Position numbers and translations under genes: made by a program | In this document: piece by piece, positions 593-18,925 of the stretch | How positions within the stretch are numbered: position 1 is the stretch's first letter | How the letters are laid out: each line of letters opens with the position of its first letter | Notes under the pieces: model-generated | Databases searched by the model: none | Told to the model about the DNA's origin: nothing | The model's input: only the letters and a program-made list of their open reading frames with translations | Virus record (IMG/VR): IMGVR_UViG_3300042398_001452 | Length of the DNA stretch: 64,000 nucleotides | Source of the DNA: a virus | Lineage: Duplodnaviria > Heunggongvirae > Uroviricota > Caudoviricetes | Direction: 5' to 3' (one strand)

Positions 593-634
593 CGGGGTCC
601 CTCCCAGGAGGCCGCGCATGTACGTGCGTAGCAG
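593..634. repeat. GC-rich hairpin element (GCH), copy 1 of 6
   Basis: GCGGGGTCCCTCCCAGGAGGCCGCGCATGTACGTGCGTAGC contains two stacked short hairpins (CCTCC/GGAGG and CGCA/TGCG). Lies immediately 5' of an EPM. Confidence 0.55.
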
Positions 635-648
635 TAAATAATACCAGG

Positions 649-691
649 AATCATTTTTTTAATTAGCTAGATTTTTCTACATTAGAATTAA
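649..691 (+). promoter_or_regulatory. EPM copy
   Basis: GAATCATTTTTTTAATTAGCTAGATTTTTCTACATTAGAATTA upstream of the 707 ORF. Confidence 0.55.
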
Positions 692-706
692 CAAACACAT
701 AAACCT

Positions 707-1027
707 ATGAAATATTTTGGAATTGCAGATGCACACGGAATCGAAAGCTTCATTAAAGGTGATCCAAACGAGGAAGAGCACTCACGTCAAGCTATGATCC
801 TAAACCTTAGAGCAGGAGCTAACCGTCACAGACACGCAGTAGTATACGTTGTTGACATCCCTGAAGACACTGCAGAAGAGGTAGACGATCTTATCATTGC
901 TGGTAATTACATAGGTGCTTTAGAACACCTTAAAAGCTCGATAAAGGAGCTTCAACTAACTAGTCTACCCGGCGCAGAAAAGAGCTGGGGACTTATCCCG
1001 AATCCAGATTTGGATCCTTATAATTAG
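707..1027 (+). CDS. hypothetical protein (106 aa)
   Basis: Track ORF with an EPM copy upstream and a terminator hairpin downstream. Confidence 0.6.
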   Translation: MKYFGIADAHGIESFIKGDPNEEEHSRQAMILNLRAGANRHRHAVVYVVDIPEDTAEEVDDLIIAGNYIGALEHLKSSIKELQLTSLPGAEKSWGLIPNPDLDPYN

Positions 1028-1046
1028 GCGGAACCTGTCCGCTGCG

Positions 1047-1074
1047 GCCTGGGTGATTCACCCAGGCTTTTTTG
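1047..1074 (+). terminator. rho-independent terminator
   Basis: GCCTGGGTG-ATTC-ACCCAGGC hairpin plus TTTTTT. Confidence 0.7.
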
Positions 1075-1111
1075 TGAGCTAAGGTTTCCGAATGATTCTT
1101 TGAATCTCCCT

Positions 1112-1126
1112 CTGAGGAACCCCAGG
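1112..1126. repeat. CTGGGGAACCCCAGG-family palindrome (PAL)
   Basis: CTGAGGAACCCCAGG, between a terminator and an EPM. Confidence 0.6.
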
Positions 1127-1140
1127 TGATTTGATCAGGA

Positions 1141-1181
1141 AATCATTTTTTTCTTTGTAGAAAAATCCATATATTAGCTAT
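1141..1181 (+). promoter_or_regulatory. EPM copy
   Basis: AATCATTTTTTTCTTTGTAGAAAAATCCATATATTAGCTAT directly abutting ATG 1182. Confidence 0.6.
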
Positions 1182-1511
1182 ATGAAAGATAAGGATATAT
1201 TACAAAGAATCAAACAACTATCGGTTGAAGATTGGTTTAAGAATGGTGATGATGCACCTGAAGAGATCTACGATGAGCTTTATGAAATAGAAGCTGAGAA
1301 CGATGATCTTGTGTATCTTCTCGAGTTAACTATTACAGGTCCAGGTCTCACCGATGTTTGGCTTTCCCGTGGTGTACTTATTGGTGATGTTTTTGCGTGG
1401 GGAGATGGATTAGAGGAAGGTGAGGAAGTTACTGAGGATGAGATCTACGAAGATAATCAAATGTTCATAGCGGAGAGAAGAGCTAATTTAATAGAGGAGA
1501 TCGTTTTATGA
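1182..1511 (+). CDS. hypothetical acidic protein (109 aa)
   Basis: Track ORF. EPM copy immediately upstream. Stop overlaps the start of the next gene (ATGA). Confidence 0.6.
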   Translation: MKDKDILQRIKQLSVEDWFKNGDDAPEEIYDELYEIEAENDDLVYLLELTITGPGLTDVWLSRGVLIGDVFAWGDGLEEGEEVTEDEIYEDNQMFIAERRANLIEEIVL

Positions 1512-2350
1512 AGTTAACTAATGAACAAATAGAATGGTTAAATAGCTGCCAAGGATGGGCTTACTTAAAAGCTAAATGGACATTTAACGAAGAAACCGGA
1601 CTAGTAGACGTAGATGGAGATTTTAAAACCCCAAATTCCCATAATTCTTGTAAAGCTTTAGGGAGGAACGGAGGTAAAAGATATGGAGGTATTTCTGATT
1701 TTATGGGTATTAAATTCGGTACTGTTACTGGTGATTTTGATTGCTCATATAACAATCTAACAAATCTAGAGGGAGCGCCTATTTACGTGGGAAAGAATTT
1801 TGATTGCTCATATAATGATCTCACAAGCTTAGTGGGAGCACCACAAGAAGTTGGAGGTTCCTTCAGTTGTATAGATAATAATCTCACAAGTCTTATTGGA
1901 TCTCCTCGAAGGGTTAATCGTCACTTCCACTGTGCTTACAACAAACTACCAAATCTAGTAGGAGCTCCTATGTACGTGGGAGAGAATTTCTGGTGCAGTG
2001 ATTTACCCAATGATCGTCATATAGAAAGTCTGCAGGGAGCAGAAGAATGTATAATACGGGGAGATTTCGATTGTCATTACAACAAATTGAAAGATTTAAA
2101 AGGTGCTCCTAGATTAATTTACGGTCAATTTAGGGTCTATGGTAATTATGAAGGAAATTACAAACGGATTAAAAAAGATACATTCGGGATAATAACCAGG
2201 ATAATGGAAGAAAAAAATCTAGGCTATTTTGGCGCTTTGTGCTATCTAAAAGACACCTTGGATAAGAAGGAATGGAACAAGCTAGCAAAAGGATATGATA
2301 TAACAGCCGAAGCTTTAAGAGCATATTCTATTATTTCAAGATATTCATAG
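1508..2350 (+). CDS. LRR-like repeat protein (about 7 tandem 22-23-aa repeats, F-C-x-Y-N-x-LTSL-x-GAP-x-V-G)
   Basis: Internal periodicity is visible in the translation: FDCSYNNLTNLEGAP / FDCSYNDLTSLVGAP / FSCIDNNLTSLIGSP and so on. LxxNxLxxL cores resemble leucine-rich repeats. Confidence 0.7.
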   Translation: MKLTNEQIEWLNSCQGWAYLKAKWTFNEETGLVDVDGDFKTPNSHNSCKALGRNGGKRYGGISDFMGIKFGTVTGDFDCSYNNLTNLEGAPIYVGKNFDCSYNDLTSLVGAPQEVGGSFSCIDNNLTSLIGSPRRVNRHFHCAYNKLPNLVGAPMYVGENFWCSDLPNDRHIESLQGAEECIIRGDFDCHYNKLKDLKGAPRLIYGQFRVYGNYEGNYKRIKKDTFGIITRIMEEKNLGYFGALCYLKDTLDKKEWNKLAKGYDITAEALRAYSIISRYS

Positions 2351-2392
2351 AATCATTTTTTTCTTTAAGTAGAATTTTCTACATTAGCTAAG
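2351..2392 (+). promoter_or_regulatory. EPM copy
   Basis: Upstream of the 2411 ORF. Confidence 0.6.
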
Positions 2393-2410
2393 TAACCAAA
2401 ATAAAAAAAT

Positions 2411-2887
2411 ATGAGAGATCACAGAAACCCACACGGAGCAAACACTCAAGAACTAAAAGAGCAAAAATTAGCGGATAATTTATTGTTCGCTGAATTCCAA
2501 TGGAACGATGCTAAGACATTAGAAGATAAGAAACGAGCTTTAGATCAGGTCAACCTCGCTATGAAAGAGATTGAAAAATTCGAAGCTGGTAGAAAGGACA
2601 ACAAGAAACCGAACCTTTACTTCGATGTGGATCCTTCGCTTATTCCTATGATGATGCAGGAGATGGAAGCTCGTATTATACGTCACGAAAGATTACAAAA
2701 TTGGCAGAACCCCGAATGGATGGACAAGCAATTGGATGAGTTAAGCAACTTGAAAGAGATGGGCTACTCCGAAAGTGAAGCATTGAAATATGTAGGTATC
2801 CTTGGTAATTCCGTTAGAGAGGTAAGAGAGATCCTAGATCTTGGTGTCGAATGGGACAACCAATCATGGGAAGAACAAAGAGGTTAA
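2411..2887 (+). CDS. hypothetical protein (158 aa)
   Basis: Track ORF with EPM upstream. Confidence 0.6.
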   Translation: MRDHRNPHGANTQELKEQKLADNLLFAEFQWNDAKTLEDKKRALDQVNLAMKEIEKFEAGRKDNKKPNLYFDVDPSLIPMMMQEMEARIIRHERLQNWQNPEWMDKQLDELSNLKEMGYSESEALKYVGILGNSVREVREILDLGVEWDNQSWEEQRG

Positions 2888-2894
2888 TTTACAA

Positions 2895-2938
2895 AATCAT
2901 TTTTTTTATTAAATAGAATTTTCTATATTAGCTAAGTA
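2895..2938 (+). promoter_or_regulatory. EPM copy
   Basis: Upstream of the 2959 ORF. Confidence 0.6.
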
Positions 2939-2958
2939 ACTAATTAAAACTAAAACCA

Positions 2959-3330
2959 ATGGCAAAATGTAACAACTGCGGGGACGAAAGAAAAATAGTA
3001 AGAGTCCTTTCATCTTGTGGATTAACAGGAGCGCGTCAATATGTAGAAATGGGAGAATGTGATTGTGACGACATCTCAGGAAGAATGGTAGACTTTGGTG
3101 AGAATCCCCACTACGAAGAGATTGAGGCTAAAAAAAAGTCCTATCCGCCTCATATTCAAAGAAAGATCGATCAGCTTGAAGAGCTAGAAGAAATGAATAT
3201 GGCATTGGGCTTTCACGACAAGATAGCTTCTGTTAGACATTTGATTGCTAAAGAAATAGAAGAAGAGGCAAAGAAAGAAGCGAGGGTTGCTAATAAAAGA
3301 GTAGAATCCGGATGGTTCATGTATACATGA
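2959..3330 (+). CDS. hypothetical protein with N-terminal Cys cluster (123 aa)
   Basis: Track ORF with EPM upstream. Contains CNNCG...C.CDD cysteines. A terminator follows. Confidence 0.6.
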   Translation: MAKCNNCGDERKIVRVLSSCGLTGARQYVEMGECDCDDISGRMVDFGENPHYEEIEAKKKSYPPHIQRKIDQLEELEEMNMALGFHDKIASVRHLIAKEIEEEAKKEARVANKRVESGWFMYT

Positions 3331-3384
3331 ACGTAACTATATAGCCGCTGCAAAACCGAGGGGTTAAGAGATGGCAAAACCAAG

Positions 3385-3410
3385 AGAGGACTTTTAAGTC
3401 CTCTTTTTTT
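3385..3410 (+). terminator. rho-independent terminator
   Basis: AGAGGACTTTTAAGTCCTCT plus T7. Confidence 0.7.
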
Positions 3411-3442
3411 GTGAAGAAAAAAATGAAAGCAATGGAGATACT

Positions 3443-3457
3443 CTGGGGAACCCCAGG
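3443..3457. repeat. PAL copy
   Basis: CTGGGGAACCCCAGG (perfect 6+2+6 palindrome). Confidence 0.65.
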
Positions 3458-3494
3458 AATCCTGATCAGGCTAAACCTATAGGTTGATTTCTGA

Positions 3495-3537
3495 AATCAT
3501 TTTTTTATCTGTAGAAAATTCTCTATATTAGCATTGT
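3495..3537 (+). promoter_or_regulatory. EPM copy
   Basis: Upstream of the 33-aa ORF at 3555. Confidence 0.55.
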
Positions 3538-3554
3538 AACCAAAATAAAATAAT

Positions 3555-3656
3555 ATGATGTTTTTAGTAATGATCGGAGAAGCCATCGCCGCTTCAAAAA
3601 GAAATAAATCAATATCTTCCGAGAGAGTAAGATATTATTCTTGGGGATCGGAGTAA
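3555..3656 (+). CDS. possible 33-aa peptide
   Basis: Short ORF (MMFLVMIGEAIAASKRNKSISSERVRYYSWGSE) placed exactly where the EPM copy at 3495 predicts a start. Terminator at 3688. Confidence 0.3.
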   Translation: MMFLVMIGEAIAASKRNKSISSERVRYYSWGSE

Positions 3657-3687
3657 GGTAAATTCACATATCGTAATTTTATTATAA

Positions 3688-3710
3688 AGAGGCTATACGC
3701 CTCTTTTTTT
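3688..3710 (+). terminator. rho-independent terminator
   Basis: AGAGGC-TATAC-GCCTCT plus T7. Confidence 0.7.
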
Positions 3711-3714
3711 CAGA

Positions 3715-3760
3715 AATCATTTTTTTATTTATGTAGAATTTTCTATATTTGTATTGTAAC
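3715..3760 (+). promoter_or_regulatory. EPM copy
   Basis: Upstream of the 3778 ORF. Confidence 0.6.
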
Positions 3761-3777
3761 CAATTAAAATAATTAAA

Positions 3778-4278
3778 ATGAAAAAGGGGGAACTAGAAAG
3801 AGTCGAAGGCATTATAGGAAGATATGGGGGTGCAAAAGAATGCGAGATTTGGGTCACTGCGGTAGAGCCAGACGGTGACTGGGAAGCTCCAGGACATTGG
3901 CCAATGTACACTCCAACCATTAAACTATCCATAGTATTAATAAAAGAATCTGGAGAGATCGACCTAATTCTAGATAAGCTTAGAAGCGGTGATTTTACAG
4001 TTGACCTTGACGGAGCAGATTTCTGCGATGAATTGACTAACAATGTTTTGGATAAAGATAGTATAATTTACGAAGCTAGTAAAGCTAAGGATCTTGATGA
4101 ATTTATAGAAAATCTCCAGGACGAAGTATACTCTGCTACTTTAGATTGGTATCGTGAAAATTATGAGTTAGATGAGGATGATGAAGATGCGGAGGATGCT
4201 TGGAATGGCGACGGTATTAACGATGATGCTTTATCAGAGATAACATATTCGGGAGGTAAAGGATTTAAAGTCGGATAG
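3778..4278 (+). CDS. hypothetical protein (166 aa), tandem paralog of 4305..4793
   Basis: N-terminus MKKGELERVEGIIGRYG matches MKKKELERVTSIIERYA of the next gene. EPM upstream. Confidence 0.65.
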   Translation: MKKGELERVEGIIGRYGGAKECEIWVTAVEPDGDWEAPGHWPMYTPTIKLSIVLIKESGEIDLILDKLRSGDFTVDLDGADFCDELTNNVLDKDSIIYEASKAKDLDEFIENLQDEVYSATLDWYRENYELDEDDEDAEDAWNGDGINDDALSEITYSGGKGFKVG

Positions 4279-4304
4279 AAATAATTAAATTAAAAAAGAT
4301 TAAA

Positions 4305-4793
4305 ATGAAAAAGAAAGAACTGGAAAGGGTCACATCGATTATAGAAAGATACGCACCAATGATAAATTGTACTATAAATTTAATGGGCATCATAATAACG
4401 GATCCAGAAAGACTCGATTGTGCAGATAGCTTTGACGGATCAATAGATGTTCAAATAATGGACTCTCGAATAGAAGAAATAAACAAAGAAAGAGTTCTTG
4501 AAAAAATAGCTAAAGGCGATTTCAAAGTTACCTGTGAAAGAGGACCAGATGGATTTATACGCCGTTTGGATGCTCTTTTAAATAAAAAGAATATAGCTAG
4601 TAAAGCGAATATGTCTGATAATTTAGAAGAATTTGTTGAAGAATTACAAGATGAGATGAATGATATATCATGTGATTACGCAGATAAGTTATTTGGCGAC
4701 GAATGGCATCCTGATATGTTCTATGAGCAGATAAGTATTTCTTACAAGTACTTCAGTGAAGATGGTGTTATAGTATTTGATAAAGAAAAATAA
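4305..4793 (+). CDS. hypothetical protein (162 aa), tandem paralog of 3778..4278
   Basis: Shared N-terminal and mid-region similarity with the preceding gene. Terminator at 4815. Confidence 0.65.
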   Translation: MKKKELERVTSIIERYAPMINCTINLMGIIITDPERLDCADSFDGSIDVQIMDSRIEEINKERVLEKIAKGDFKVTCERGPDGFIRRLDALLNKKNIASKANMSDNLEEFVEELQDEMNDISCDYADKLFGDEWHPDMFYEQISISYKYFSEDGVIVFDKEK

Positions 4794-4814
4794 TAATATT
4801 AATACTTTAACAAG

Positions 4815-4837
4815 AAGACCCTTCGGGGTCTTTTTTT
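4815..4837 (+). terminator. rho-independent terminator
   Basis: AGACCC-TTCG-GGGTCT plus T7. Confidence 0.75.
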
Positions 4838-4868
4838 GTGGAGAAAAAACTTAGGATGTCTAGATTTA

Positions 4869-4883
4869 CTGGGGAACCCCAGG
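4869..4883. repeat. PAL copy
   Basis: CTGGGGAACCCCAGG. Confidence 0.65.
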
Positions 4884-4898
4884 TGAATTAATTTCAGA

Positions 4899-4940
4899 AA
4901 TCATTTTTTTATTTGTAGAAAATTCCATACATTAGCTAAG
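4899..4940 (+). promoter_or_regulatory. EPM copy
   Basis: Upstream of the 4954 ORF. Confidence 0.6.
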
Positions 4941-4953
4941 TAAATCAATCAGA

Positions 4954-5301
4954 ATGAAATGTCAAAGATGCGGTAACGAAGTTAAGGAACACACGATGTC
5001 TATGTTTAATATCCAAACTATTTGTTTACCTTGTAAGAAGATCGAAAAGAAGCATCCGAAATATGAAGAAGCTTGTAAAACCGATCTCGAATATATTAGG
5101 GCAGGCGACTATAACTTTCCTGGTATCGGTTGGGACGCTTTGACGTATGAGGAAAGAATAGCTTGGTTCGTTAGCAAGTATTACGAGAGTGGTATGGAAT
5201 ACCAGAGCTTACTAGTTACTATGAAGGACGAAGACCTTGACAATTTCAAATGGTACGATGAGGTGATTAAGTTTCCTAAATATAGATGCGAAATTAAATA
5301 A
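4954..5301 (+). CDS. hypothetical zinc-ribbon protein (115 aa)
   Basis: CQRCGNEV...CLPCKK gives two CxxC pairs. EPM upstream. Confidence 0.6.
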   Translation: MKCQRCGNEVKEHTMSMFNIQTICLPCKKIEKKHPKYEEACKTDLEYIRAGDYNFPGIGWDALTYEERIAWFVSKYYESGMEYQSLLVTMKDEDLDNFKWYDEVIKFPKYRCEIK

Positions 5302-5302
5302 C

Positions 5303-5638
5303 ATGGCAGAGAAAATAGACCCACTAAAAATTGCAAGGTCCTCCAGAGACATGGACGTGAAAGGACTCGTAGGATTCTTTTATGCGCACCAAAGTAAATT
5401 CTGGTCGTGGGGACCGCATAATTTTGTAGATGTCAAAGGTAGAGGCTTACGCTTTAATGTTCAAGGACACCACCACACTGGACATGTGTATCTGTTCGTT
5501 AATGGATTGGACTTGTTCGATATTTACCTTACCTCATCTCATGGTACGATAAAAGAAACTATAAACGATGTTTACTTAGACGATTTGTTTGATACTCTTG
5601 ATAAGAAGATCGAATGGATTGATATTTATGAAGATTAA
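5303..5638 (+). CDS. hypothetical protein (111 aa)
   Basis: Track ORF, translationally coupled to the upstream gene. Confidence 0.55.
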   Translation: MAEKIDPLKIARSSRDMDVKGLVGFFYAHQSKFWSWGPHNFVDVKGRGLRFNVQGHHHTGHVYLFVNGLDLFDIYLTSSHGTIKETINDVYLDDLFDTLDKKIEWIDIYED

Positions 5639-5660
5639 AATAATTTCAATTATTTTCAGA

Positions 5661-5705
5661 AATCATTTTTTTCTTTAAGTAGAAATTTCTATATTTGTAA
5701 TGTTA
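5661..5705 (+). promoter_or_regulatory. EPM copy
   Basis: Upstream of the sigma-factor gene at 5725. Confidence 0.6.
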
Positions 5706-5724
5706 ATCAATTAAACAAAAGCAA

Positions 5725-13487: not shown

Positions 13488-13512
13488 AAGACTCCACAAG
13501 GGTCTTTTTTTG
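13488..13512 (+). terminator. rho-independent terminator
   Basis: AGACTC-CACAA-GGGTCT (imperfect) plus T7. Confidence 0.6.
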
Positions 13513-13548
13513 TGGACCAAGTTTTTCAAATAGCATATGCTAGATTCT

Positions 13549-13564
13549 CTGAGGAACCACAGAG
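13549..13564. repeat. PAL copy (degenerate)
   Basis: CTGAGGAACCACAGAG. Confidence 0.45.
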
Positions 13565-13606
13565 AATCATTTTTTTATTTGTGGAAAAATCTTTATATTT
13601 GGATAT
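13565..13606 (+). promoter_or_regulatory. EPM copy
   Basis: Upstream of the 13634 ORF. Confidence 0.55.
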
Positions 13607-13633
13607 ATAAGTATAAATAAATAAAAAATTAAA

Positions 13634-14137: not shown

Positions 14138-14157
14138 GAAATAAAATATATCTAAAA

Positions 14158-14182
14158 AAAGACCCTACAAGGGTCTTTTTTT
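14158..14182 (+). terminator. rho-independent terminator
   Basis: AGACCC-TACAA-GGGTCT plus T8. Confidence 0.75.
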
Positions 14183-14222
14183 ATGCTCCAAGGTTTACAG
14201 TAAACAGTCTACTGTAAACCAA

Positions 14223-14237
14223 CTGAGGAACCTCAGG
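14223..14237. repeat. PAL copy
   Basis: CTGAGGAACCTCAGG, where both arms changed (G to A with C to T) and the palindrome is preserved. Confidence 0.65.
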
Positions 14238-14287
14238 AAAATAGATGTAGAGAAGGATTACATCTATAACTACATCTATAACTATAG

Positions 14288-14333
14288 CGGGCTCCCCCGG
14301 GGGACGCGTGCGTACGTGTGCACGCGTAGGCAC
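14288..14333. repeat. GCH copy 4
   Basis: GGGCTCCCCCGGGGGACGCGTGCGTACGTGTGCACGCGTAGGCAC carries a perfect 8-bp hairpin ACGCGTGC-gtacgtgt-GCACGCGT. 5' of EPM 14345. Confidence 0.6.
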
Positions 14334-14344
14334 TTTTTTTCAGA

Positions 14345-14388
14345 AATCATTTTTTTATTTGTAGAAAATTCCATACATTAGCTATGTT
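14345..14388 (+). promoter_or_regulatory. EPM copy
   Basis: Upstream of the 14409 ORF. Confidence 0.6.
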
Positions 14389-14408
14389 AATCAATTAAAT
14401 ATATACAA

Positions 14409-14543
14409 ATGGAAAGAACAATCAATTTTATCGCTTGGAGCCTTATCACTGTTTTAGCTTCACTTACAATCTATGGTATACTTTACGCAGCTATACAGAT
14501 AGTTATAGGTAATGTACATTCAACAGCAAGCTTTGAATTTTAA
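14409..14543 (+). CDS. possible 44-aa membrane peptide
   Basis: ATG immediately after EPM copy 14345. Hydrophobic. Confidence 0.3.
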   Translation: MERTINFIAWSLITVLASLTIYGILYAAIQIVIGNVHSTASFEF

Positions 14544-14547
14544 AAAA

Positions 14548-14709
14548 AATGAAAACTGTAATAACAAAATCACAACTTCTTAAGATAGAATCCGGGAGAG
14601 TCAGAGAAGACCAGAAAGCCCAAGGTTTCTTCGATGGAAGATTTGTTACAAGAGCTCAAGATTCAAAAAAGAAATACTCCCGCAAGGAGAAGCACAAGGG
14701 CATCAACTA
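14548..14709 (+). CDS. possible 53-aa basic peptide
   Basis: Small ORF between the preceding peptide and the terminator at 14730. Confidence 0.3.
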
Positions 14710-14729
14710 AGAAACAAAACCCTATCTAC

Positions 14730-14757
14730 CCCTTGTCCGTTCGGACAGGGGTTTTTT
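14730..14757 (+). terminator. rho-independent terminator
   Basis: CCTTGTCCG-TTCG-GACAGGGG plus T6. Confidence 0.7.
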
Positions 14758-14786
14758 GTGCGAATCCAAAATCCCTCTTAATCATC

Positions 14787-14802
14787 CTGGGGTTCCGCCG
14801 AG
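14787..14802. repeat. PAL copy (degenerate)
   Basis: CTGGGGTTCCGCCGAG. Confidence 0.4.
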
Positions 14803-14872
14803 TGGATTCAAAGAATCAGACCTCCTGAGATACCCCGAAAACTTTTTTCAAAAAAAATCAGAAATCATTTTT

Positions 14873-14914
14873 TTATTTGTAGAAAATTCTATATTTTAGC
14901 TAAGTTAATCAATT
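14873..14914 (+). promoter_or_regulatory. EPM copy
   Basis: Upstream of the 14929 ORF. Confidence 0.6.
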
Positions 14915-14928
14915 AAACAATATCAATT

Positions 14929-15249
14929 ATGAAAAAGGAAATGACAATGGAACAAAAAGCAAAAAAAGCAGCAGCGAACAAAGCTTACCGTGAGCGTAAG
15001 AAAAACCAAGCGGCAACTCCGAATTGGATGGAATTGGATAAGTTCGAAATGAGTTTCACTCACAAAATTCGACTTTTCAAAAACCTCAAATTGGAAATCA
15101 CAAATTCCTACTGCGCTTCCCCTGGTACAGTTTTGAGATTTGAAAAAATTAAAAACGAAGATAATAAAATTATCTTTCGAGTACGCCGCACCGGTCGTCG
15201 CACCTTCTTCACCACCTCGACTAACCTACACGCACCAGTCGAGGCGTGA
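14929..15249 (+). CDS. member C of the 4-copy basic-protein paralog family
   Basis: MKKEMTMEQKAKKAAANKAYRERKK...RVRRTGRRTFFTT. EPM upstream. Confidence 0.7.
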   Translation: MKKEMTMEQKAKKAAANKAYRERKKNQAATPNWMELDKFEMSFTHKIRLFKNLKLEITNSYCASPGTVLRFEKIKNEDNKIIFRVRRTGRRTFFTTSTNLHAPVEA

Positions 15250-15273
15250 TCGGGGTGGATGTAAAAAACCCAC

Positions 15274-15297
15274 GGGAATCTTCGGATTCCCTTTTTT
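15274..15297 (+). terminator. rho-independent terminator (paralogous hairpin GGGAATC-TTCG-GATTCCC)
   Basis: Hairpin plus T6. Same hairpin family as those at 15576 and 16604. Confidence 0.7.
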
Positions 15298-15310
15298 ACA
15301 TCCAAGCCCA

Positions 15311-15325
15311 CTGCGGTTCCGCAGG
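15311..15325. repeat. PAL copy
   Basis: CTGCGGTTCCGCAGG, where both arms changed (G to C with C to G) and the palindrome is preserved. Confidence 0.65.
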
Positions 15326-15357
15326 GAGACAGAAATTATTTTAAATAAAAATTCGAA

Positions 15358-15401
15358 AATCATTTTTTTATTTGTAGAAAATTCTATATATTAGCTATGT
15401 T
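15358..15401 (+). promoter_or_regulatory. EPM copy (exact consensus)
   Basis: Upstream of the 15422 ORF. Confidence 0.6.
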
Positions 15402-15421
15402 AATCAATCAAATAAAAACAT

Positions 15422-15571
15422 ATGAAATCAGAAACAAAAAAGAAATTAGAATTTCTAAAATCATTAGGATTGTCAGAAAATGAAATTAGTGAATTATTAG
15501 ATTCCCAATTCATCCTCGACCAATCCCAAGAATTTAAAAGGGAGGAAATTGAAGAAGAAGAAGAGTTTTAA
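15422..15571 (+). CDS. possible 49-aa acidic peptide
   Basis: ATG right after EPM copy 15358. Terminator at 15576. Confidence 0.35.
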   Translation: MKSETKKKLEFLKSLGLSENEISELLDSQFILDQSQEFKREEIEEEEEF

Positions 15572-15575
15572 AATT

Positions 15576-15600
15576 GGGGAATCTCCGGATTCCCTTTTTA
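15576..15600 (+). terminator. rho-independent terminator (GGGGAATC-TCCG-GATTCCC)
   Basis: Hairpin plus T5. Confidence 0.65.
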
Positions 15601-15613
15601 ATTTATATACCCT

Positions 15614-15630
15614 CTGCGGAACCCCAGAGG
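15614..15630. repeat. PAL copy
   Basis: CTGCGGAACCCCAGAGG. Confidence 0.55.
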
Positions 15631-15673
15631 GGCTCCATGGGGGACGCGTGCGTACGTGCGCCCGCGTAGAGGG
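15631..15673. repeat. GCH copy 5
   Basis: GGCTCCATGGGGGACGCGTGCGTACGTGCGCCCGCGTAGAGGG, 5' of EPM 15684. Confidence 0.55.
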
Positions 15674-15683
15674 TTTTTTCAGA

Positions 15684-15724
15684 AATCATTTTTTTATCTT
15701 CCCTAGATTTATTATATTTACACT
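15684..15724 (+). promoter_or_regulatory. EPM copy (degenerate)
   Basis: Abuts ATG 15725. Confidence 0.45.
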
Positions 15725-15928
15725 ATGTCACTAACACCACAACAATTAAAAGCTAATGCAGACTTCTTTAATAATGTAGCTGCAATGACCAAGATGTATG
15801 TGTGGCCTGATACTGGCCACATTTATAAAATAGAAGAAGGGATCTTTATCTGTGACTCCCCGGAATCATTTAATGATTTAAAAGATAACACTCCAGAAAC
15901 TTTCCATTATAAAATCAAAATGAAATAA
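15725..15928 (+). CDS. hypothetical protein (67 aa)
   Basis: Track ORF with EPM upstream. Confidence 0.5.
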   Translation: MSLTPQQLKANADFFNNVAAMTKMYVWPDTGHIYKIEEGIFICDSPESFNDLKDNTPETFHYKIKMK

Positions 15929-15981
15929 AATAAATCCTTATATTTGTATTATACATTTAAATTTTATTCCCATAAAATTTG

Positions 15982-16010
15982 AACCCTAGAAGAAATTCTA
16001 GGGTTTTTTT
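15982..16010 (+). terminator. rho-independent terminator
   Basis: AACCCTAGA-AGAAAT-TCTAGGGTT plus T7. Confidence 0.75.
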
Positions 16011-16072
16011 GTGTAATCAAAATACAAGCATATAGTAAGACACCGGAGTTTCCTCGATAGATCTTATACCCC

Positions 16073-16090
16073 ATAGCGGAACCCCAGGGG
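16073..16090. repeat. PAL copy (first of a 3-copy cluster)
   Basis: ATAGCGGAACCCCAGGGG. Confidence 0.55.
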
Positions 16091-16119
16091 ATAAAAAAAA
16101 ATTAAATATATAAAACCCC

Positions 16120-16134
16120 CTGCGGAACCCCCAG
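16120..16134. repeat. PAL copy (cluster)
   Basis: CTGCGGAACCCCCAG. Confidence 0.55.
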
Positions 16135-16156
16135 TTAAAATTTTAAAAAATACCTT

Positions 16157-16176
16157 GGAAGGTTCCGCAGGGAACC
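16157..16176. repeat. PAL-related palindrome in shifted register (cluster)
   Basis: GGAAGGTTCCGCAGGGAACC contains GGTTCC-gcag-GGAACC. Confidence 0.5.
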
Positions 16177-16215
16177 ATTAAAATAAATTTTTAGAAATTT
16201 CCACTTTTTTCCAAG

Positions 16216-16258
16216 AATCATTTTTTTGTTTGTAGAAAAATCCATATATTAGCTATGT
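16216..16258 (+). promoter_or_regulatory. EPM copy
   Basis: Upstream of the 16281 ORF. Confidence 0.6.
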
Positions 16259-16280
16259 TAATCAATTAAACAAAAACAAA

Positions 16281-16583
16281 ATGAAAAAGGAAACAGTAAA
16301 AAAACCAGTTGCTAAAAAATCAGTTAAAAATTCTAACACTCCAGAATGGTTAAATCTGGAAAAGTTTGAAATGAGTTTTGAACATAAAATCAGACTTTTT
16401 AGAAATCTGAAACTTGAAACTACAAACTCCTACTGTGCAACTCCGGGTACTCCTCTTAAATTTGAAAAAATTAAAAATGAGGATAACAAGATTGTTTATC
16501 GAGTTCGCCGCAACGGTCGTAGAACTTTCTTTACAACTTGCGACCATTTGAAAAATCAAGTTGAAACAATACCCGCGGAATAA
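16281..16583 (+). CDS. member D of the 4-copy basic-protein paralog family
   Basis: ...WLNLEKFEMSFEHKIRLFRNLKLE...RVRRNGRRTFFTT. EPM upstream. Confidence 0.7.
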   Translation: MKKETVKKPVAKKSVKNSNTPEWLNLEKFEMSFEHKIRLFRNLKLETTNSYCATPGTPLKFEKIKNEDNKIVYRVRRNGRRTFFTTCDHLKNQVETIPAE

Positions 16584-16603
16584 TCGGGTTTACAAAAAAT
16601 AAA

Positions 16604-16628
16604 GGGGGAATCTCCGGATTCCCTTTTT
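16604..16628 (+). terminator. rho-independent terminator (GGGGGAATC-TCCG-GATTCCC)
   Basis: Hairpin plus T5. Confidence 0.65.
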
Positions 16629-16641
16629 AATAAAAATTTCT

Positions 16642-16656
16642 CTGCGGAACCCCAGG
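16642..16656. repeat. PAL copy
   Basis: CTGCGGAACCCCAGG. Confidence 0.6.
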
Positions 16657-16680
16657 AACACTGATCAGAAAAGATTCAGA

Positions 16681-16722
16681 AATCATTTTTTTTATTTGGA
16701 AAAATCTATTATATTAGCTATG
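16681..16722 (+). promoter_or_regulatory. EPM copy
   Basis: Upstream of the 16741 ORF. Confidence 0.55.
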
Positions 16723-16740
16723 TAATCAAACTAAGAACAA

Positions 16741-16947
16741 ATGGACATTTTAGAAGTTTTCAAATCTATAAAACAAAGTAGAAAAAATCTTAAAGATTTA
16801 GAAGCCCAAGTGATTCTTTTATGGGGAGATCTCTATTGGCTTAATAGTGATTTTCAAAGTAGTAATGAAGCTGCTATGATGGAAAAGATTAGTACAGATA
16901 TTCAATATGATTTACAAAAATATAATTCATTTATTTCATTAAACTAG
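16741..16947 (+). CDS. hypothetical protein (68 aa)
   Basis: Track ORF with EPM upstream. Confidence 0.5.
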   Translation: MDILEVFKSIKQSRKNLKDLEAQVILLWGDLYWLNSDFQSSNEAAMMEKISTDIQYDLQKYNSFISLN

Positions 16948-17003
16948 AAAATAAATTCTTATATTTGTAGTTCATAAAATATTTATTCTTGGAATAAACA
17001 CTA

Positions 17004-17032
17004 AACCCTAGATTGATCATCTAGGGTTTTTT
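17004..17032 (+). terminator. rho-independent terminator
   Basis: AACCCTAGAT-TGATC-ATCTAGGGTT plus T6. Confidence 0.75.
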
Positions 17033-17065
17033 GTGTGTAAAAAAAATCTATACTATATGATTCCC

Positions 17066-17080
17066 CTGCGGCACCCCAAC
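17066..17080. repeat. PAL copy (CTGCGGCACCCC subtype)
   Basis: CTGCGGCACCCCAAC. Confidence 0.5.
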
Positions 17081-17122
17081 GAGATTTTTTATGTATTTAA
17101 TTTTTATATACTATTTTTACAT

Positions 17123-17137
17123 TGGGGGAACCGCAGG
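17123..17137. repeat. PAL copy
   Basis: TGGGGGAACCGCAGG. Confidence 0.5.
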
Positions 17138-17161
17138 AAGACTAATAAGAAAAGATTTAGA

Positions 17162-17205
17162 AATCATTTTTTTATATGTAGAAAAATCCATATATTTATA
17201 TAATC
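17162..17205 (+). promoter_or_regulatory. EPM copy with no ORF downstream (ATG-TAA immediately, then a terminator)
   Basis: The motif is intact. The downstream 17222..17297 region ends in a hairpin plus T-run. Confidence 0.5.
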
Positions 17206-17266
17206 AATAAAACAAAAAGAAATGTAATATTATCATTTAAAAAATAAAATCCCCAATCCCCCAATG

Positions 17267-17296
17267 GAAGAGTTGTATAACTCTTCTTTTTTTTGT
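17267..17296 (+). terminator. rho-independent terminator closing the ORF-less transcript from EPM 17162
   Basis: GAAGAGTT-GTAT-AACTCTTC plus T8. Confidence 0.65.
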
Positions 17297-17323
17297 GGAA
17301 AATTTTAAAACTATTTAAGCTCC

Positions 17324-17337
17324 CTGAGGAACCCCAC
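17324..17337. repeat. PAL copy
   Basis: CTGAGGAACCCCAC. Confidence 0.5.
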
Positions 17338-17417
17338 ATAAAAATTGTAGAGTATAATAGTAAAGTAATAGTAAGAATAGTAAGTAATAGTAGTAAAAAT
17401 GTATTACCATAATTCCT

Positions 17418-17432
17418 CTGCGGCACCCCAGG
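17418..17432. repeat. PAL copy (CTGCGGCACCCCAGG subtype)
   Basis: CTGCGGCACCCCAGG. Confidence 0.6.
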
Positions 17433-17462
17433 GTGGTAAATATATAATTAACTATTTTCAGA

Positions 17463-17505
17463 AATCATTTTTTTATATGTAGTATAATCCATATATTTAC
17501 TTAAT
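17463..17505 (+). promoter_or_regulatory. EPM copy
   Basis: Upstream of the 17519 ORF. Confidence 0.55.
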
Positions 17506-17518
17506 CAATCATTCAAAC

Positions 17519-17755
17519 ATGGCATCATCTAAAACATCTTCAAGCATTAGTATCACAACAGTACTATTTCTGATATTCCTAACTCTTAAACTAACTAACC
17601 TCATAGCATGGTCTTGGTGGTGGGTCACAGCTCCTTTATGGATACCTGTATTACTAGCAATAGCTATTATAGTGATAGCTGCATCAGTAATCATTATTGC
17701 ATTTGCTCTAGGATTCTCCGGAGATGACATTAAAAGAAGAATAAGAAGAAATTAA
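17519..17755 (+). CDS. hypothetical membrane protein (78 aa)
   Basis: Track ORF with EPM upstream. Hydrophobic W-rich core. Confidence 0.5.
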   Translation: MASSKTSSSISITTVLFLIFLTLKLTNLIAWSWWWVTAPLWIPVLLAIAIIVIAASVIIIAFALGFSGDDIKRRIRRN

Positions 17756-17771
17756 CTTAACACACAATATA

Positions 17772-18008
17772 ATGGAAAATCAAACAAAAGTAGATTATCT
17801 AAAAACACTCTTTACTGTAACAGAAGTACAAGATGAAGGATGTAGCTTTGAAGCTCCCGACTGCTATGAAGCATATATCTTATTTGAAGACTTTCAAGTA
17901 GGGGACACCGCGAATGATATATGTAGTGCTTCAGAATACTACTCATGCTGTGGAGACGTATTAGACAAAGACTATATGATGTGTCCAACTTGCTACGAAC
18001 ATTGCTAA
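17772..18008 (+). CDS. hypothetical Cys-rich protein (78 aa)
   Basis: Track ORF. CxxC...CC...CPTC cysteines. Terminator at 18041. Confidence 0.5.
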   Translation: MENQTKVDYLKTLFTVTEVQDEGCSFEAPDCYEAYILFEDFQVGDTANDICSASEYYSCCGDVLDKDYMMCPTCYEHC

Positions 18009-18040
18009 TTTCATAGTTCATAGATTAACAAAAAAAGAGA

Positions 18041-18062
18041 GGAGCTTTATGCTCCTTTTTTT
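18041..18062 (+). terminator. rho-independent terminator
   Basis: GGAGC-TTTAT-GCTCC plus T7. Confidence 0.7.
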
Positions 18063-18081
18063 ATGCACATCTCTTTTCCCT

Positions 18082-18096
18082 CTGCGGCACCCCAGG
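18082..18096. repeat. PAL copy (CTGCGGCACCCCAGG subtype)
   Basis: CTGCGGCACCCCAGG. Confidence 0.6.
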
Positions 18097-18128
18097 GAAT
18101 ACAATTAATATAATTAATTATTTTCAGA

Positions 18129-18172
18129 AATCATTTTTTTATTCGTGGAAAAATCCATATATTTATATAGTT
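18129..18172 (+). promoter_or_regulatory. EPM copy
   Basis: Upstream of the 18193 ORF. Confidence 0.55.
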
Positions 18173-18192
18173 AATCAATTAAACATATAAAC

Positions 18193-18372
18193 ATGAAAAA
18201 ACTAAATCTCTTCATCACACTAACTATCCTAGTATTACCAATAGGAACTATCCTAATGCTAGGAGGTAATCACATAGGAGAATACCTAGTATCAATAGGC
18301 TCTATTATGGGTCTTTATACATGCTACCTTCTAGACCAAGAAGAACAGAAAAAACCCGAAAACCAACCCTAA
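18193..18372 (+). CDS. possible 59-aa membrane peptide
   Basis: ATG after EPM copy 18129. Hydrophobic N-terminal two-thirds. Confidence 0.4.
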   Translation: MKKLNLFITLTILVLPIGTILMLGGNHIGEYLVSIGSIMGLYTCYLLDQEEQKKPENQP

Positions 18373-18415
18373 AAAATAGCCCCCTAAAAAGGGCTATATT
18401 TATATGGTAAAACCC

Positions 18416-18430
18416 CTGCGGCACCCCCTA
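18416..18430. repeat. PAL copy (subtype)
   Basis: CTGCGGCACCCCCTA. Confidence 0.5.
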
Positions 18431-18461
18431 GTGAAAAATGATAAATCTTTCATTTATCACA

Positions 18462-18478
18462 CTGAGGCACCCCCACAT
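18462..18478. repeat. PAL copy (subtype)
   Basis: CTGAGGCACCCCCACAT. Confidence 0.5.
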
Positions 18479-18510
18479 AAATACCTTTAAACTTAAAAAC
18501 TATAGCACAT

Positions 18511-18545
18511 TAAAAAGGCCCTTATTTTAAGGGCCTCTTCTTTTA
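18511..18545 (+). terminator. terminator-like hairpin at the end of the early block
   Basis: AGGCCCTTA-TTTT-AAGGGCCT followed by a T-rich stretch. Confidence 0.5.
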
Positions 18546-18880
18546 GATATGTAACCAACTAAAAGATATATGGAGAATATACAGCTAATATAGATATAAT
18601 TCACTATATAAAAAAATGATTCCAGGCCCCAAATATCACTAAAATAAGGGGCCTAAAATGAGCTTTTTAAAGGGCCCAAAATCTCTTAAAAAAGGCCCTA
18701 AAAACCCCCCATTTTAAGCCTTTTTGGCCCCCTCTAAAAGTGTGCTAATGCCCCGGGGGGTAATTCTAATTTTGGCCCCCGGCTTCGGGCTAGCAAAATT
18801 TTATGAGCCTACCAAAAGGGTCCTTTCTAGGATTTATCCCGGACTATCCAGGAGGTCTAGGTGAGTTACCTTTAAACATT

Positions 18881-18925
18881 CCTATGCGTACGCGCACACG
18901 CGTATAGGGGTGGGCCCAGGCCCTG
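18881..18925. repeat. GCH-related copy 6 inside the gene-free GC-island region
   Basis: CCTATGCGTACGCGCACACGCGTATAGGGGTGGGCCCAGGCCC. Confidence 0.45.

Follow-up and report, generated by a model that had tools for sequence, protein, structure and literature searches.

The closest described system is that of the PeSL cassettes of T4-type phages (Arbiol et al. 2010, PMC2839356; Comeau et al. 2014, PMC4122927), in which a conserved strong early promoter is combined with a GGGG...CCCC stem-loop motif at a variable distance from it; the cassettes cluster in a plastic, ORFan-rich region, and homology blocks of related phages break at them. All of these traits recur in the 64,000-nt stretch of phage DNA analysed here (the window), in cassettes edged by a GC-rich module termed class B. 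The likeness is one of sequence, terminator activity and mini-circles belonging to the PeSL side of the comparison. The two systems differ in that the phage lineages are unrelated, the promoter here is of a Bacteroidota type (a TAnnTTTG-like box) rather than a sigma-70 −35/−10 promoter, canonical terminators are separate cassette parts, and class B includes an alternating purine-pyrimidine tract, which is not mentioned for PeSL (PMC2839356, PMC4122927). No nucleotide match to the window phage was found in 50,697 phage records, and its best helicase match was 30% identical.

The original prediction listed six GC-rich hairpin elements, and all six islands were found in place. They make up six of the 11 islands in the 64 kb that reach at least 70% GC in a 30-nt window; the remaining islands are one terminator, two coding stretches and one tmRNA. 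For a predicted GC content of 70–80%, cores measured 72–82% in the first five and 67% in the sixth, against a background of 36%. Only the first five, all on the + strand, can be aligned as one family; they start with GGGGTCC, GGGCTCC or GGGGCTCC, and the promoter motif said to lie directly 3′ of each element follows them after 14–26 nt as AATCATTTTTTT, whereas none adjoins the sixth. These five copies probably represent one lineage-specific, orientation-fixed intergenic module that borders early-promoter cassettes on their upstream side and is carried by a clade of uncultivated freshwater jumbo phages. The module consists of a GGGG-(T/A)-CCC...CAGGRGG core, a CG-rich, (CGTR)n-like tract of 10–33 bp in strict purine/pyrimidine alternation and, after the tract, RGGG. 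The window copies are:

594–632, + strand: class-B copy 1, with GGGGTCC at 594–600, CAGGAGG at 605–611 and tract CGCGCATGTACGTGCGTA at 613–630
6765–6797, + strand: class-B copy 2, with GGGGTCC at 6765–6771 and a short tract, CGCGCACGCGTA, at 6784–6795
10442–10480, + strand: class-B copy 3, with the core at 10442–10459 and a tract with one break at 10461–10480
14289–14328, + strand: class-B copy 4, GGGCTCCCCCGGGGGAC, then 25 nt of alternating tract at 14304–14328
15629–15669, + strand: class-B copy 5, GGGGCTCCATGGGGGAC followed by a tract at 15644–15661

Copy 1, which has orthologs at more than 20 loci, abuts the stop codon (589–591) of the ORF at 394–591, and the uninterrupted alternating run of copy 3 spans 10469–10480. 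The tract of copy 4 holds a perfect 8-bp inverted repeat (14304–14311 / 14320–14327), confirming the predicted ACGCGTGC-GTACGTGT-GCACGCGT at 14304–14327. Nested inverted repeats are present in single copies, but the family has no conserved hairpin register. The strict purine/pyrimidine alternation of the cores had been overlooked in the original prediction.

The stretch 18883–18925 was rejected as a family member, the alternating tract being the sole shared feature, and its G/C-rich part was rejected as class B since it belongs to a separate 49-nt two-copy repeat:

18883–18906, strand not assigned: alternating tract only, TATGCGTACGCGCACACGCGTATA, with neither a class-B core nor a promoter motif beside it
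18908–18956, + strand: G/C-rich repeat unit of 49 nt, with a second copy at 19011–19059

At the orthologous site of one relative (L006) this tract is absent, with unrelated AT-rich sequence in its place.

In the window copies, a promoter cassette of fixed geometry stands 14–26 nt past the module. The first 24 kb contain 33 occurrences of the AATCATTTTTTT motif, each with a TAnnTT[TA][GA] box exactly 29 nt downstream. The expression signals of the clade look Bacteroidota-like, in that the −7 box resembles TAnnTTTG and Shine-Dalgarno sequences are absent. Of 30 early ORFs scanned, 26 gave no significant Pfam match. The original prediction had also missed another GC dyad, CTGNGGNNCCNCAG (class A), which is commoner than class B. 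It occurs 17 times against 0.01 expected, always on the + strand and between 1.1 and 18.1 kb, in the same cassette position as the class-B module. The class-B core looks like a variant of this commoner dyad (CTGGGGAACCCCAG), which stands before 17 other early promoters. The parts surrounding the five copies are:

649–685, + strand: cassette after copy 1, AATCATTTTTTT with box TACATTAG at +29; ORF start 707
6623–6645, + strand: canonical intrinsic terminator GGAGACTTCGGTCTCC + T7, upstream of class A and copy 2
6675–6688, + strand: class-A dyad CTGAGGTTCCCCAG, upstream of copy 2
6819–6855, + strand: cassette after copy 2, box TATATTAG; ORF start 6860
10507–10543, + strand: cassette after copy 3, box TACATTTA; ORF start 10548
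14153–14183, + strand: canonical terminator AAAAAAAGACCCTACAAGGGTCTTTTTTT, upstream of class A and copy 4
14223–14236, + strand: class-A dyad CTGAGGAACCTCAG, upstream of copy 4
14345–14381, + strand: cassette after copy 4, box TACATTAG; ORF start 14409
15576–15599, + strand: canonical terminator GGGGAATCTCCGGATTCCC + T5, upstream of class A and copy 5
15614–15627, + strand: class-A dyad CTGCGGAACCCCAG, immediately before copy 5
15684–15720, + strand: cassette after copy 5, box TATATTTA; ORF start 15725

Alignment of the copies, proposed originally, and a search for relatives found the elements conserved in related phages, so they are not a feature that relatives lack. Class-B copies numbered 48 distinct ones in the window and 45 related metagenomic jumbo-phage loci, with a promoter motif within 80 nt downstream in 40 of the 48 and with core and tract coupled in 38 of 43 core matches. 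The distance from module to promoter ranges from 6 to 50 nt, a variability that argues against a helically phased activator site. A search of 185,579 bacterial and archaeal genomes gave three chance matches and no member of the family. Most lineages retain the module before their ORF707 orthologs, down to ∼62% amino acid identity, with at least six different upstream contexts abutting it; the module is co-inherited with the promoter and gene on its downstream side, whereas the genes upstream vary. Homology with relatives begins at the 5′ edge of the module for copies 2, 3 and 4 (precisely at 10442 for copy 3 in L003), and 25 of 42 homology blocks start between −110 and +20 nt from the promoter motif, where random placement gave 9.2 on average and at most 21 in 2000 trials. 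Taken together, these comparisons show that the module travels and reshuffles with its downstream promoter and ORFan gene, so that the cassettes behave like PeSL cassettes of T4-type phages. The recombination hotspot suggested earlier is therefore supported for the whole cassette, where the homology blocks of relatives begin; this support does not extend to the GC element itself.

Judged from the aligned copies, the feature preserved by evolution is the purine-pyrimidine alternating, putatively Z-DNA-prone tract rather than a hairpin. The window has seven GC-rich runs of at least 11 nt in alternation, compared with 0.85 expected (maximum 3 in 200 Markov simulations), and six of the seven are the six elements. 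Variable columns in the tract were transition-only in 11 cases and included a transversion in 2, versus 29 and 46 in the flanks (Fisher p=0.0024, the unit being the alignment column and not a phylogenetically independent event), with 30–39% of tract columns variable compared to 38–46% in the flanks. This bias could come partly from hairpins tolerating G-U pairs, or from slippage-driven homogenisation of (CGTR)n. When Z-forming propensity was computed with published B-Z energies (PMC3024258), the six tracts ranked as the top six predicted Z-formers in the 64 kb, with critical sigma values of −0.046 to −0.061 and all other window sequence at −0.063 or below. Several copies have a tract of only 10–13 bp (e.g. 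6784–6795, critical sigma ∼−0.061), which would not be expected to flip at ordinary unconstrained superhelicity. We know of no Z-DNA role for any phage promoter.

The reading that we favour, with a probability of roughly 0.35, is that class B is a boundary or insulator at the level of DNA, belonging to early-gene cassettes that recombine and equipped with a torsion-sensitive tract. As a boundary between tandem, co-directional early transcription units, it would act chiefly on DNA. The alternating tract would be the segment readiest for a B-to-Z flip, triggered by the negative supercoils that accumulate in the wake of RNA polymerase leaving the strong promoter next to it, and the flip would buffer torsion between neighbouring units; this torsional (B-Z) mechanism is tentative. 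The G/C dyad may hold a protein, and any RNA hairpin or terminator effect would be auxiliary. Among the functions originally listed, an insulator is the best fit, since the module occupies gaps between transcription units, is passed on together with the promoter that follows it and, for three of the five window copies, comes after a canonical terminator.

It is possible, though we think it doubtful, that the module is instead an auxiliary intrinsic terminator or attenuator, in which hairpins of read-through RNA (C-run/G-run and the self-complementary tract) and a U-run would halt or delay polymerases ahead of the following promoter, as in PeSL, whose stem-loops terminate in reporter assays (PMC2839356). 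The module does lie in fixed orientation between a stop codon and the next promoter, with a stop triplet no more than 3 nt from its start in 32 of 48 copies, and no other terminator was found upstream of copies 1 and 3. However, canonical terminators with TTTTTTTGTG tails already stand upstream of the other three window copies and of 8 of the 48 overall. A T-run lies within 14 nt of only ∼18 of 48 copies, copies 1 and 3 having no U-run, and the T-run TTTTTTCAGAAATCA is also found in module-free cassettes. A terminator scan flagged copies 4 and 5, weakly, and the copy-5 region folds at −37.4 kcal/mol (z=−2.9) ahead of T6, yet single-copy folding z-scores were mostly insignificant. Folding of the tract is weak, at −1.4 to −10 kcal/mol in most copies, and equals that of alternation-preserving shuffles (mean z −0.10, p=0.45). 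RNAalifold returned no consensus structure for 39 copies, and the proposed first hairpin had 0 compensatory changes and paired no better than shuffles. The sense strand was the better folder in 41 copies versus 9 for the antisense strand, and two weak hairpins are predicted within subgroups of copies; given these and the T-runs, an RNA role may exist. An ordinary terminator, serving upstream genes only, was rejected on the grounds that three of five copies lie downstream of a canonical one and that neither consensus structure nor compensatory change was found.

Another of the earlier suggestions, that a DNA-binding protein or nuclease recognises the element, agrees with the conserved primary sequence, including the GGGG-N-CCCC dyad: G19, G30, G32 and G33 are invariant in 39 copies, without covariation. 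No binding protein could be identified, however, and the scan of 30 early ORFs detected no DNA-binding domain. We regard it as unlikely that a protein of phage or host (an early-gene repressor or activator, for instance, or else a nucleoid-type protein, a topoisomerase/gyrase or a recombinase) recognises the module by its dyad and/or tract. The centre of the dyad varies between T and A, as expected for a palindromic site, the related class-A dyad takes the same cassette position in its 17 copies, and type II topoisomerases cleave preferentially in alternating purine-pyrimidine runs. Promoter spacing is nevertheless unphased, and the tract drifts freely via transitions, which is unusual for base-specific readout. 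Protein binding was proposed for the GGGG...CCCC motif by the PeSL authors too (PMC2839356).

We give little credence to a largely neutral passenger, in which a microsatellite-like (CGTR)n tract of single origin beside a class-A-type dyad was spread by cassette duplication and gene conversion, alternation being a by-product of the repeat unit. Tract lengths do come in steps of 4 (12, 16 and 20 nt), the copy at 12596 of L037 is a 33-nt tandem array of GTGCGTAC units, and paralogous copies inside one genome (L005) have identical tract sequence. Against this, the module is kept before ORF707 orthologs despite flank turnover, tract substitutions occur at about flank frequency but are nearly all transitions where neutral decay should add transversions, and the tract stays CG-rich in a genome of ∼33% GC (36% in the early region) with a CpG observed/expected ratio of 0.69.

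A miniature mobile element or dedicated recombination hotspot spreading into cassettes, like yeast mitochondrial GC clusters or REP elements, also seems highly improbable. The module resembles an optional insertion, placed after class A and ahead of the promoter: copy 5 stands in for a ∼20 nt spacer of the paralogous cassette at 16642, L033 has an extra ∼105 nt block with the module relative to L031, and the 18883 tract replaces unrelated sequence of L006. Copies also have (T)AGGG on both flanks, and mosaic breakpoints lie at the module edge. Since the flanking AGGG is constant, it is likelier to be part of the element than a target-site duplication; no terminal inverted repeats or variable target-site duplications were found, a flank-pair search of ∼500 kb gave no clean empty site in which the target occurred once, cassette position and orientation are always the same, and bacterial and archaeal genomes lack the family. 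The anti-terminator also suggested originally found no support.

Further systems share some features with class B. Intrinsic (Rho-independent) terminators are likewise GC-rich, with potential hairpins on the 3′ side of genes and, as after some copies here, a T-run; class B differs in its weak hairpins, which lack covariation and do not exceed alternation-preserving shuffles, and in its many copies without a U-tract or behind a genuine terminator. Yeast mitochondrial GC clusters likewise form GC-rich islands against a strongly AT-rich background, contain runs of G and of C and often lie beside TAG; mobility and recombinogenic effects are suspected. They show insertion polymorphism and target duplication, unlike class B, for which no clean empty site or variable duplication was found and whose position and orientation are fixed to promoters. 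REP/BIME elements of enterobacteria are, like class B, short, GC-rich, repeated and extragenic, just past stop codons, and they have been proposed to protect mRNA 3′ ends, to terminate transcripts and to bind gyrase, the last as a way of managing supercoils between adjoining transcription units. In bacterial chromosomes, REPs are moved by RAYT transposases; they are palindromic, though imperfectly so, and have GTAG as a conserved end, whereas class B has no conserved palindrome register and no bacterial copies and is tied to a downstream promoter. Transcription from active promoters generates negative supercoils upstream. CG/TG/TA alternating tracts just upstream of active promoters are common to class B and to the Z-DNA inserts of Rahmouni & Wells 1989, as cited in PMC3024258. 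The cases published are engineered inserts of ∼26–32 bp or more in E. coli plasmids (PMC3024258). Class-B tracts, in contrast, are natural, conserved, 10–33 bp long and part of a phage genome; their B-Z transition is predicted, with computed thresholds near physiological superhelicity.

The six GC-rich islands of the original prediction are all present at the places first assigned to them, in a window of 28-39% GC. A scan of 30-nt stretches at a threshold of at least 70% GC returned 11 islands, six of which are the reported elements.

GC-rich islands of the window
594, + strand: copy 1, class B
6765, + strand: copy 2, class B
10442, + strand: copy 3, class B
14289, + strand: copy 4, class B
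15629, + strand: copy 5, class B
18883-18906: sixth element, a tract and, beside it, one of the two units of a separate 49-nt repeat (18908-18956, 19011-19059)
1024-1068: terminator
near 15.2 kb: two coding stretches
within the tmRNA: two parts

The elements had been listed as six copies, with a promoter motif just 3′ of each. Copies 1-5 bear this out: with a core GC of 72-82%, they align together on the + strand under the consensus GGGG(T/C)CC, 3-6 nt, (C)AGG(A/G)GG(C/A)C and a CG-rich run ending GCGTAG, and AATCATTTTTTT follows each of them after 14-26 nt. The sixth element (core GC 67%) departs on both counts, since it shares the alternating purine/pyrimidine tract of the others without the class-B core and lies in a strand-switch region with no adjoining promoter motif; the tract is thus not confined to sites with the core. 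The perfect inverted repeat quoted in the original prediction was located at 14304-14327. ACGCGT and CGTACG occur five and four times, respectively, within elements and never outside them, but since the expected outside counts are merely 0.2 and 0.9 this confinement is not evidence of restriction-site avoidance, which is not supported. A G-quadruplex was discarded on inspection because four adequate G-runs are not present, and a mini-ORF was rejected because only copy 1 has an ATG (M-Y-V-R-S-S-K) downstream of an SD-like AGGAGG, and the genes here do without an SD (1/33). The strand-switch region (18370-19100) is dense in G-runs and C-runs (GGCCCCC, CCCCGGGGGG), contains several small hairpins and the two-copy 49-nt repeat, and retains ~70% identity in the related locus L006; candidate functions are a site for replication or packaging and a region of non-coding RNA.

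The first 18 kb consist of dense, co-directional short genes, each preceded by a repeat unit of ~70-95 nt. Within the first 24 kb, AATCATTTTT occurs 33 times, with a TAnnTT[TA][GA] box exactly 29 nt downstream in 33/33, and a looser search for the promoter motif gave 49 matches vs 7 expected. The resulting early-promoter cassette, 70-95 nt long and present in ~35 copies (330-18141 on the + strand, plus 22382 and about 53434), is made up of AATCATTTTTTT, often TTTGTAGAAAA or a TAGAATTTTCTA palindrome, and the TAnnTT[TA][GA] box at fixed +29. Matches to the sigma-70 consensus are not enriched (58 vs 66 expected). Sigma-A of Flavobacterium has TAnnTTTG as its −7 consensus (PMC9723704); since the box found here is Flavobacterium-like and only 1 of the 33 early genes has an SD-like 4-mer, the host is probably a member of the Bacteroidota.

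A second, more common GC-rich dyad (class A, CTGNGGNNCCNCAG) occurs 17 times between 1112 and 18095, vs 0.01 expected, always on the + strand, and is placed between terminators and promoter motifs; some copies carry symmetric changes (CTGAGGAACCTCAG, CTGCGGTTCCGCAG). Between genes, a stop codon is typically followed by a canonical terminator with a TTTTTTTGTG tail, then by a conserved spacer, the class-A dyad and, 13-53 nt further on, the promoter motif. Terminator-like sites number 42 in 1-19.5 kb, vs 13 expected, and the canonical terminators at 1046-1078, 7920-7953, 8377-8406, 14730-14761 and others have the common tail TTTTTT(T)GTG followed by the conserved spacer. This shared tail and spacer imply that the whole ~150-nt intergenic unit, not the promoter alone, has been repeated. 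The 5′ part of class B (GGGG-T-CCC..CAGGAGG) resembles class A (GGGG-AA-CCCC-AGGAA), an intermediate form is present in the relative L005 (9300-9330), and we infer from this resemblance that the two classes may be homologous.

In the early region, 26 of the 30 ORFs scanned lack a significant Pfam match. Four paralogous copies of an ORFan gene of ~100 aa, 64-76% identical in nucleotide sequence, lie at 8054-8337, 11083-11366, 14935-15218 and 16257-16540; their spread through the array is consistent with cassette duplication. Tandem 63-nt (21-aa) repeats at 1724-1968 lie inside ORF 1508-2350, which may encode a repeat protein, and a related unit is found near the window start (48-103). Elsewhere the window has genes of phage type: one for a Dda-like helicase, two for sigma-70-family proteins and one for a tmRNA.

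Genes identified in the window
5725-6597, + strand: sigma-70-family protein, regions 1.2, 2, 3 and 4
11528-12307, + strand: M28-family peptidase, in the early array
19101-19571, − strand: P-loop kinase, opposite in strand to the array and located at its end, with a weak, below-threshold Zeta-toxin/AAA-like match
23446-23866, + strand: tmRNA; tag peptide ANVYNTEDIMSIPTSLTRVAVAEEAELLMAA (ARAGORN); Rfam RF00023, 92.7 bits, E=8e-35
41416-42279, + strand: sigma-70-family protein, regions 1.2, 2, 3 and 4
50027-51007, + strand: homolog of deoxyhypusine synthase (Pfam PF01916, E=1.5e-41), unusual in a phage
60680-62305, + strand: PAS-domain sensor histidine-kinase-like protein, two PAS domains and HATPase_c

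The presence of two sigma-70-family proteins suggests a phage-driven sigma cascade; one of the two genes is inside the early array, directly upstream of copy 2. No megablast match to 1-20 kb was found among 50,697 phage records. Protein matches reach at most 30% identity, and the best for the Dda helicase (28-30%) are in unrelated phages.

Relatives were found by pattern scans of IMG/VR, which gave four related contigs of 86-248 kb, and by a protein-guided metagenome scan with ORF707, the gene downstream of copy 1, which gave 42 loci at 48-100% amino acid identity. One of three matches to the copy-1 pattern, at locus L001 (57% GC), was rejected as a chance match in coding sequence, and the exact 20-mer common to copies 4 and 5 had no match in IMG/VR. 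In all, 48 distinct class-B copies were catalogued in ~500 kb, five of them in the window. The alternating tract directly follows 38 of 43 core-pattern matches, so that core and tract are coupled; 32/48 copies start within 3 nt of a stop-type triplet, and 40/48 have a promoter motif within 80 nt downstream, at an unphased distance of 6-50 nt. Before ORF707 orthologs the module is kept in most lineages down to ~62% amino acid identity, adjoined by at least six unrelated upstream contexts. At the same promoter, one lineage (L007, L008 and L027) has a terminator and class A instead of the module, and more distant relatives have plain terminators in its place. Judged from these loci, the module goes with the promoter downstream of it. 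For copies 2, 3 and 4, homology with the nearest divergent relative begins at the 5′ edge of the module, and 25 of 42 homology-block starts fall within −110 to +20 nt of a promoter motif (random mean 9.2, maximum 21 in 2000 trials).

The six longest GC-rich purine/pyrimidine alternations of the window (12-25 nt, 54-75% GC) are the six elements; runs of at least 11 nt number seven, vs 0.85 expected and a maximum of three in 200 simulations. Across the family the tract is 10-33 nt long and resembles an imperfect (CGTR)n repeat, one copy being a tandem GTGCGTAC array. In alignments of orthologous copies, tract and flanks vary to a similar extent (30-39% vs 38-46% of columns), but 11 of the 13 variable tract columns contain transitions only, as against 29 of the 75 variable flank columns (Fisher one-sided p=0.0024; the independence of such column counts, as of the Wilcoxon and t-tests, is overstated because the copies are related). 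CpG deamination as the sole source of this bias was rejected, since many of the tract transitions lie outside CpG (TA/TG, CA/TA). The conserved property thus appears, from these alignments, to be purine-pyrimidine alternation and not sequence. Taken together, the comparisons establish a conserved module, fixed in orientation and linked to the promoter, that lies at the edge of early-gene cassettes undergoing recombination; selection apparently acts on its alternation.

Z-DNA-forming sequences are expected to alternate purine and pyrimidine over 8 bp or more and to have many CG and TG/CA steps, as the element tracts do. With the B-Z energies in Table 1 of PMC3024258, the six tracts rank first to sixth in the window as predicted Z-formers. 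A simple and rough two-state calculation on a 5-kb domain, which ignores competing transitions and protein constraint, puts their critical sigma at −0.046 to −0.061 and that of all other segments at −0.063 or below. These values are near total, and beyond typical unconstrained, in-vivo supercoiling, and the shortest tracts would probably need supercoiling driven by transcription in order to flip. We propose that the module would act chiefly on the DNA, separating tandem early units as a boundary or insulator, and that the alternating tract may be a torsion-sensitive B-Z element. That the element is a cassette module is probable; the full proposal, in which that module is also a boundary or insulator working through a torsion-sensitive tract, is given a probability of about 0.35. 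The idea that the tracts are naturally selected, torsion-sensing B-Z switches, which would go over to Z-DNA on firing of the adjacent early promoter and thereby insulate or tune neighbouring units in the dense, tandem series of ~35 early promoters, is an unlikely one; if true, they would be the first such family in a bacterial virus, as we know of no conserved, functional Z-DNA element family previously described in one. A literature search returned nothing specific on phage Z-DNA elements or on this phage group.

A different role, as an auxiliary terminator or structured RNA, was examined by folding. Intrinsic terminators combine a stable GC hairpin, under selection, with an immediate U-tract; the class-B modules lack this combination and show no selection on the hairpin, either as compensatory change or as folding relative to controls. 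A terminator scan did not call copies 1, 2 and 3 and called copies 4 and 5 merely as 6-bp stems; copies 1 and 3 have no T-run, and the T-run after copies 4 and 5 (TTTTTTCAGAAATCA) is present also in module-less cassettes. The minimum free energy of the tract is mostly −1.4 to −10 kcal/mol, and z-scores of single-copy folds are mostly insignificant relative to shuffles. RNAalifold predicted no pairs and no consensus structure for 39 copies, and an explicit model of the first hairpin was 79.5% paired with no compensatory changes, equal to shuffle controls; a conserved structured RNA was rejected on these three results. Folding of tracts with flanks is better than in free shuffles (z −0.65, p=3e-4) but no better than in alternation-preserving shuffles (mean z −0.10, p=0.45), both tests overstating the independence of related copies, so that hairpin potential is fully explained by alternation and composition. 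At the gathering threshold the sole Rfam match in the whole window is the tmRNA, and ARAGORN gave no tRNA-like origin for the elements. An RNA role is favoured by two weak hairpins in subgroup alignments, by TTTT within 14 nt of the tract in 18/48 copies, and by better folding of the sense than the antisense strand in 41/50 copies, although this asymmetry could simply reflect sense-strand richness in G and T. Separate canonical terminators already precede copies 2, 4 and 5 (6623-6645, 14153-14183 and 15576-15599), and 8/48 members of the family as a whole. The evidence is mostly against a terminator or structured-RNA role, and an auxiliary terminator is somewhat unlikely.

It is improbable that the module is a binding site for a protein, topoisomerase included; no Z-alpha or other DNA-binding domain was found in the 30 early ORFs scanned. 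A mobile element or recombination hotspot is very unlikely. A ~105-nt block with the module is present at locus L033 and absent from L031, and in L006 unrelated sequence stands in place of the tract at 18883, both suggestive of mobility; however, neither is a clean empty site, and a search of flank pairs gave whole-cassette differences only. Class B lacks terminal inverted repeats, and its copies show no target-site duplications that vary from one insertion site to another: nearly all copies have an identical flanking (T)AGGG, which, being constant, is probably part of the element. REP elements have copies in the host chromosome, whereas among 185,579 bacterial and archaeal genomes the class-B family was not found, the three hits (52-73% GC, no cassette context) all being judged chance, and a host-derived repeat is ruled out. 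A neutral repeat has little likelihood.

Should the constraint on alternation hold, the proposed cassette module would offer a direct test of Z-DNA or torsional buffering at natural bacterial or phage promoters, a subject studied so far mainly with engineered inserts. Module and AATCATTTTTTT cassette together are a specific marker by which the early regions of the phage clade can be found and delimited in metagenomic data.

Among the closest known systems are the promoter-early stem-loop (PeSL) cassettes of T4-type phages, composite units of promoter and GGGG...CCCC stem-loop that occupy plastic, ORFan-rich stretches of the genome and act as sites of exchange (PMC2839356; PMC4122927). As in PeSL, a composite intergenic motif with a conserved early promoter is repeated many times (33 motifs), a G-run/C-run motif lies at variable distance from the promoter (17 class-A copies; class B 6-50 nt away), and the region is ORFan-rich and hyperplastic, the cassettes delimiting the indels and replacements that distinguish relatives. 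PeSL promoters, however, are of the sigma-70 −35/−10 type with AT-rich upstream sequence, whereas the conserved box here is TAnnTTTG-like, and PeSL belong to T4-like myoviruses, whereas the present clade is unrelated and its promoter and stem-loop sequences differ. The PeSL stem-loop is an effective transcription terminator; the hairpins computed here are weak, and separate canonical terminators are present. In PeSL, mini-circles also arise from recombination between cassettes. The alternating-tract sub-module and the constraint on alternation were not found described in the literature searched. The architecture works like PeSL but is not PeSL: it is an analogue, found in phages of an unrelated clade and built around another type of promoter. 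PeSL-style cassettes of promoter and GC stem-loop, which shuffle ORFan genes, are thus not peculiar to T4-like coliphages, and the architecture recurs in unrelated, uncultivated freshwater jumbo phages with Bacteroidota-type promoters.
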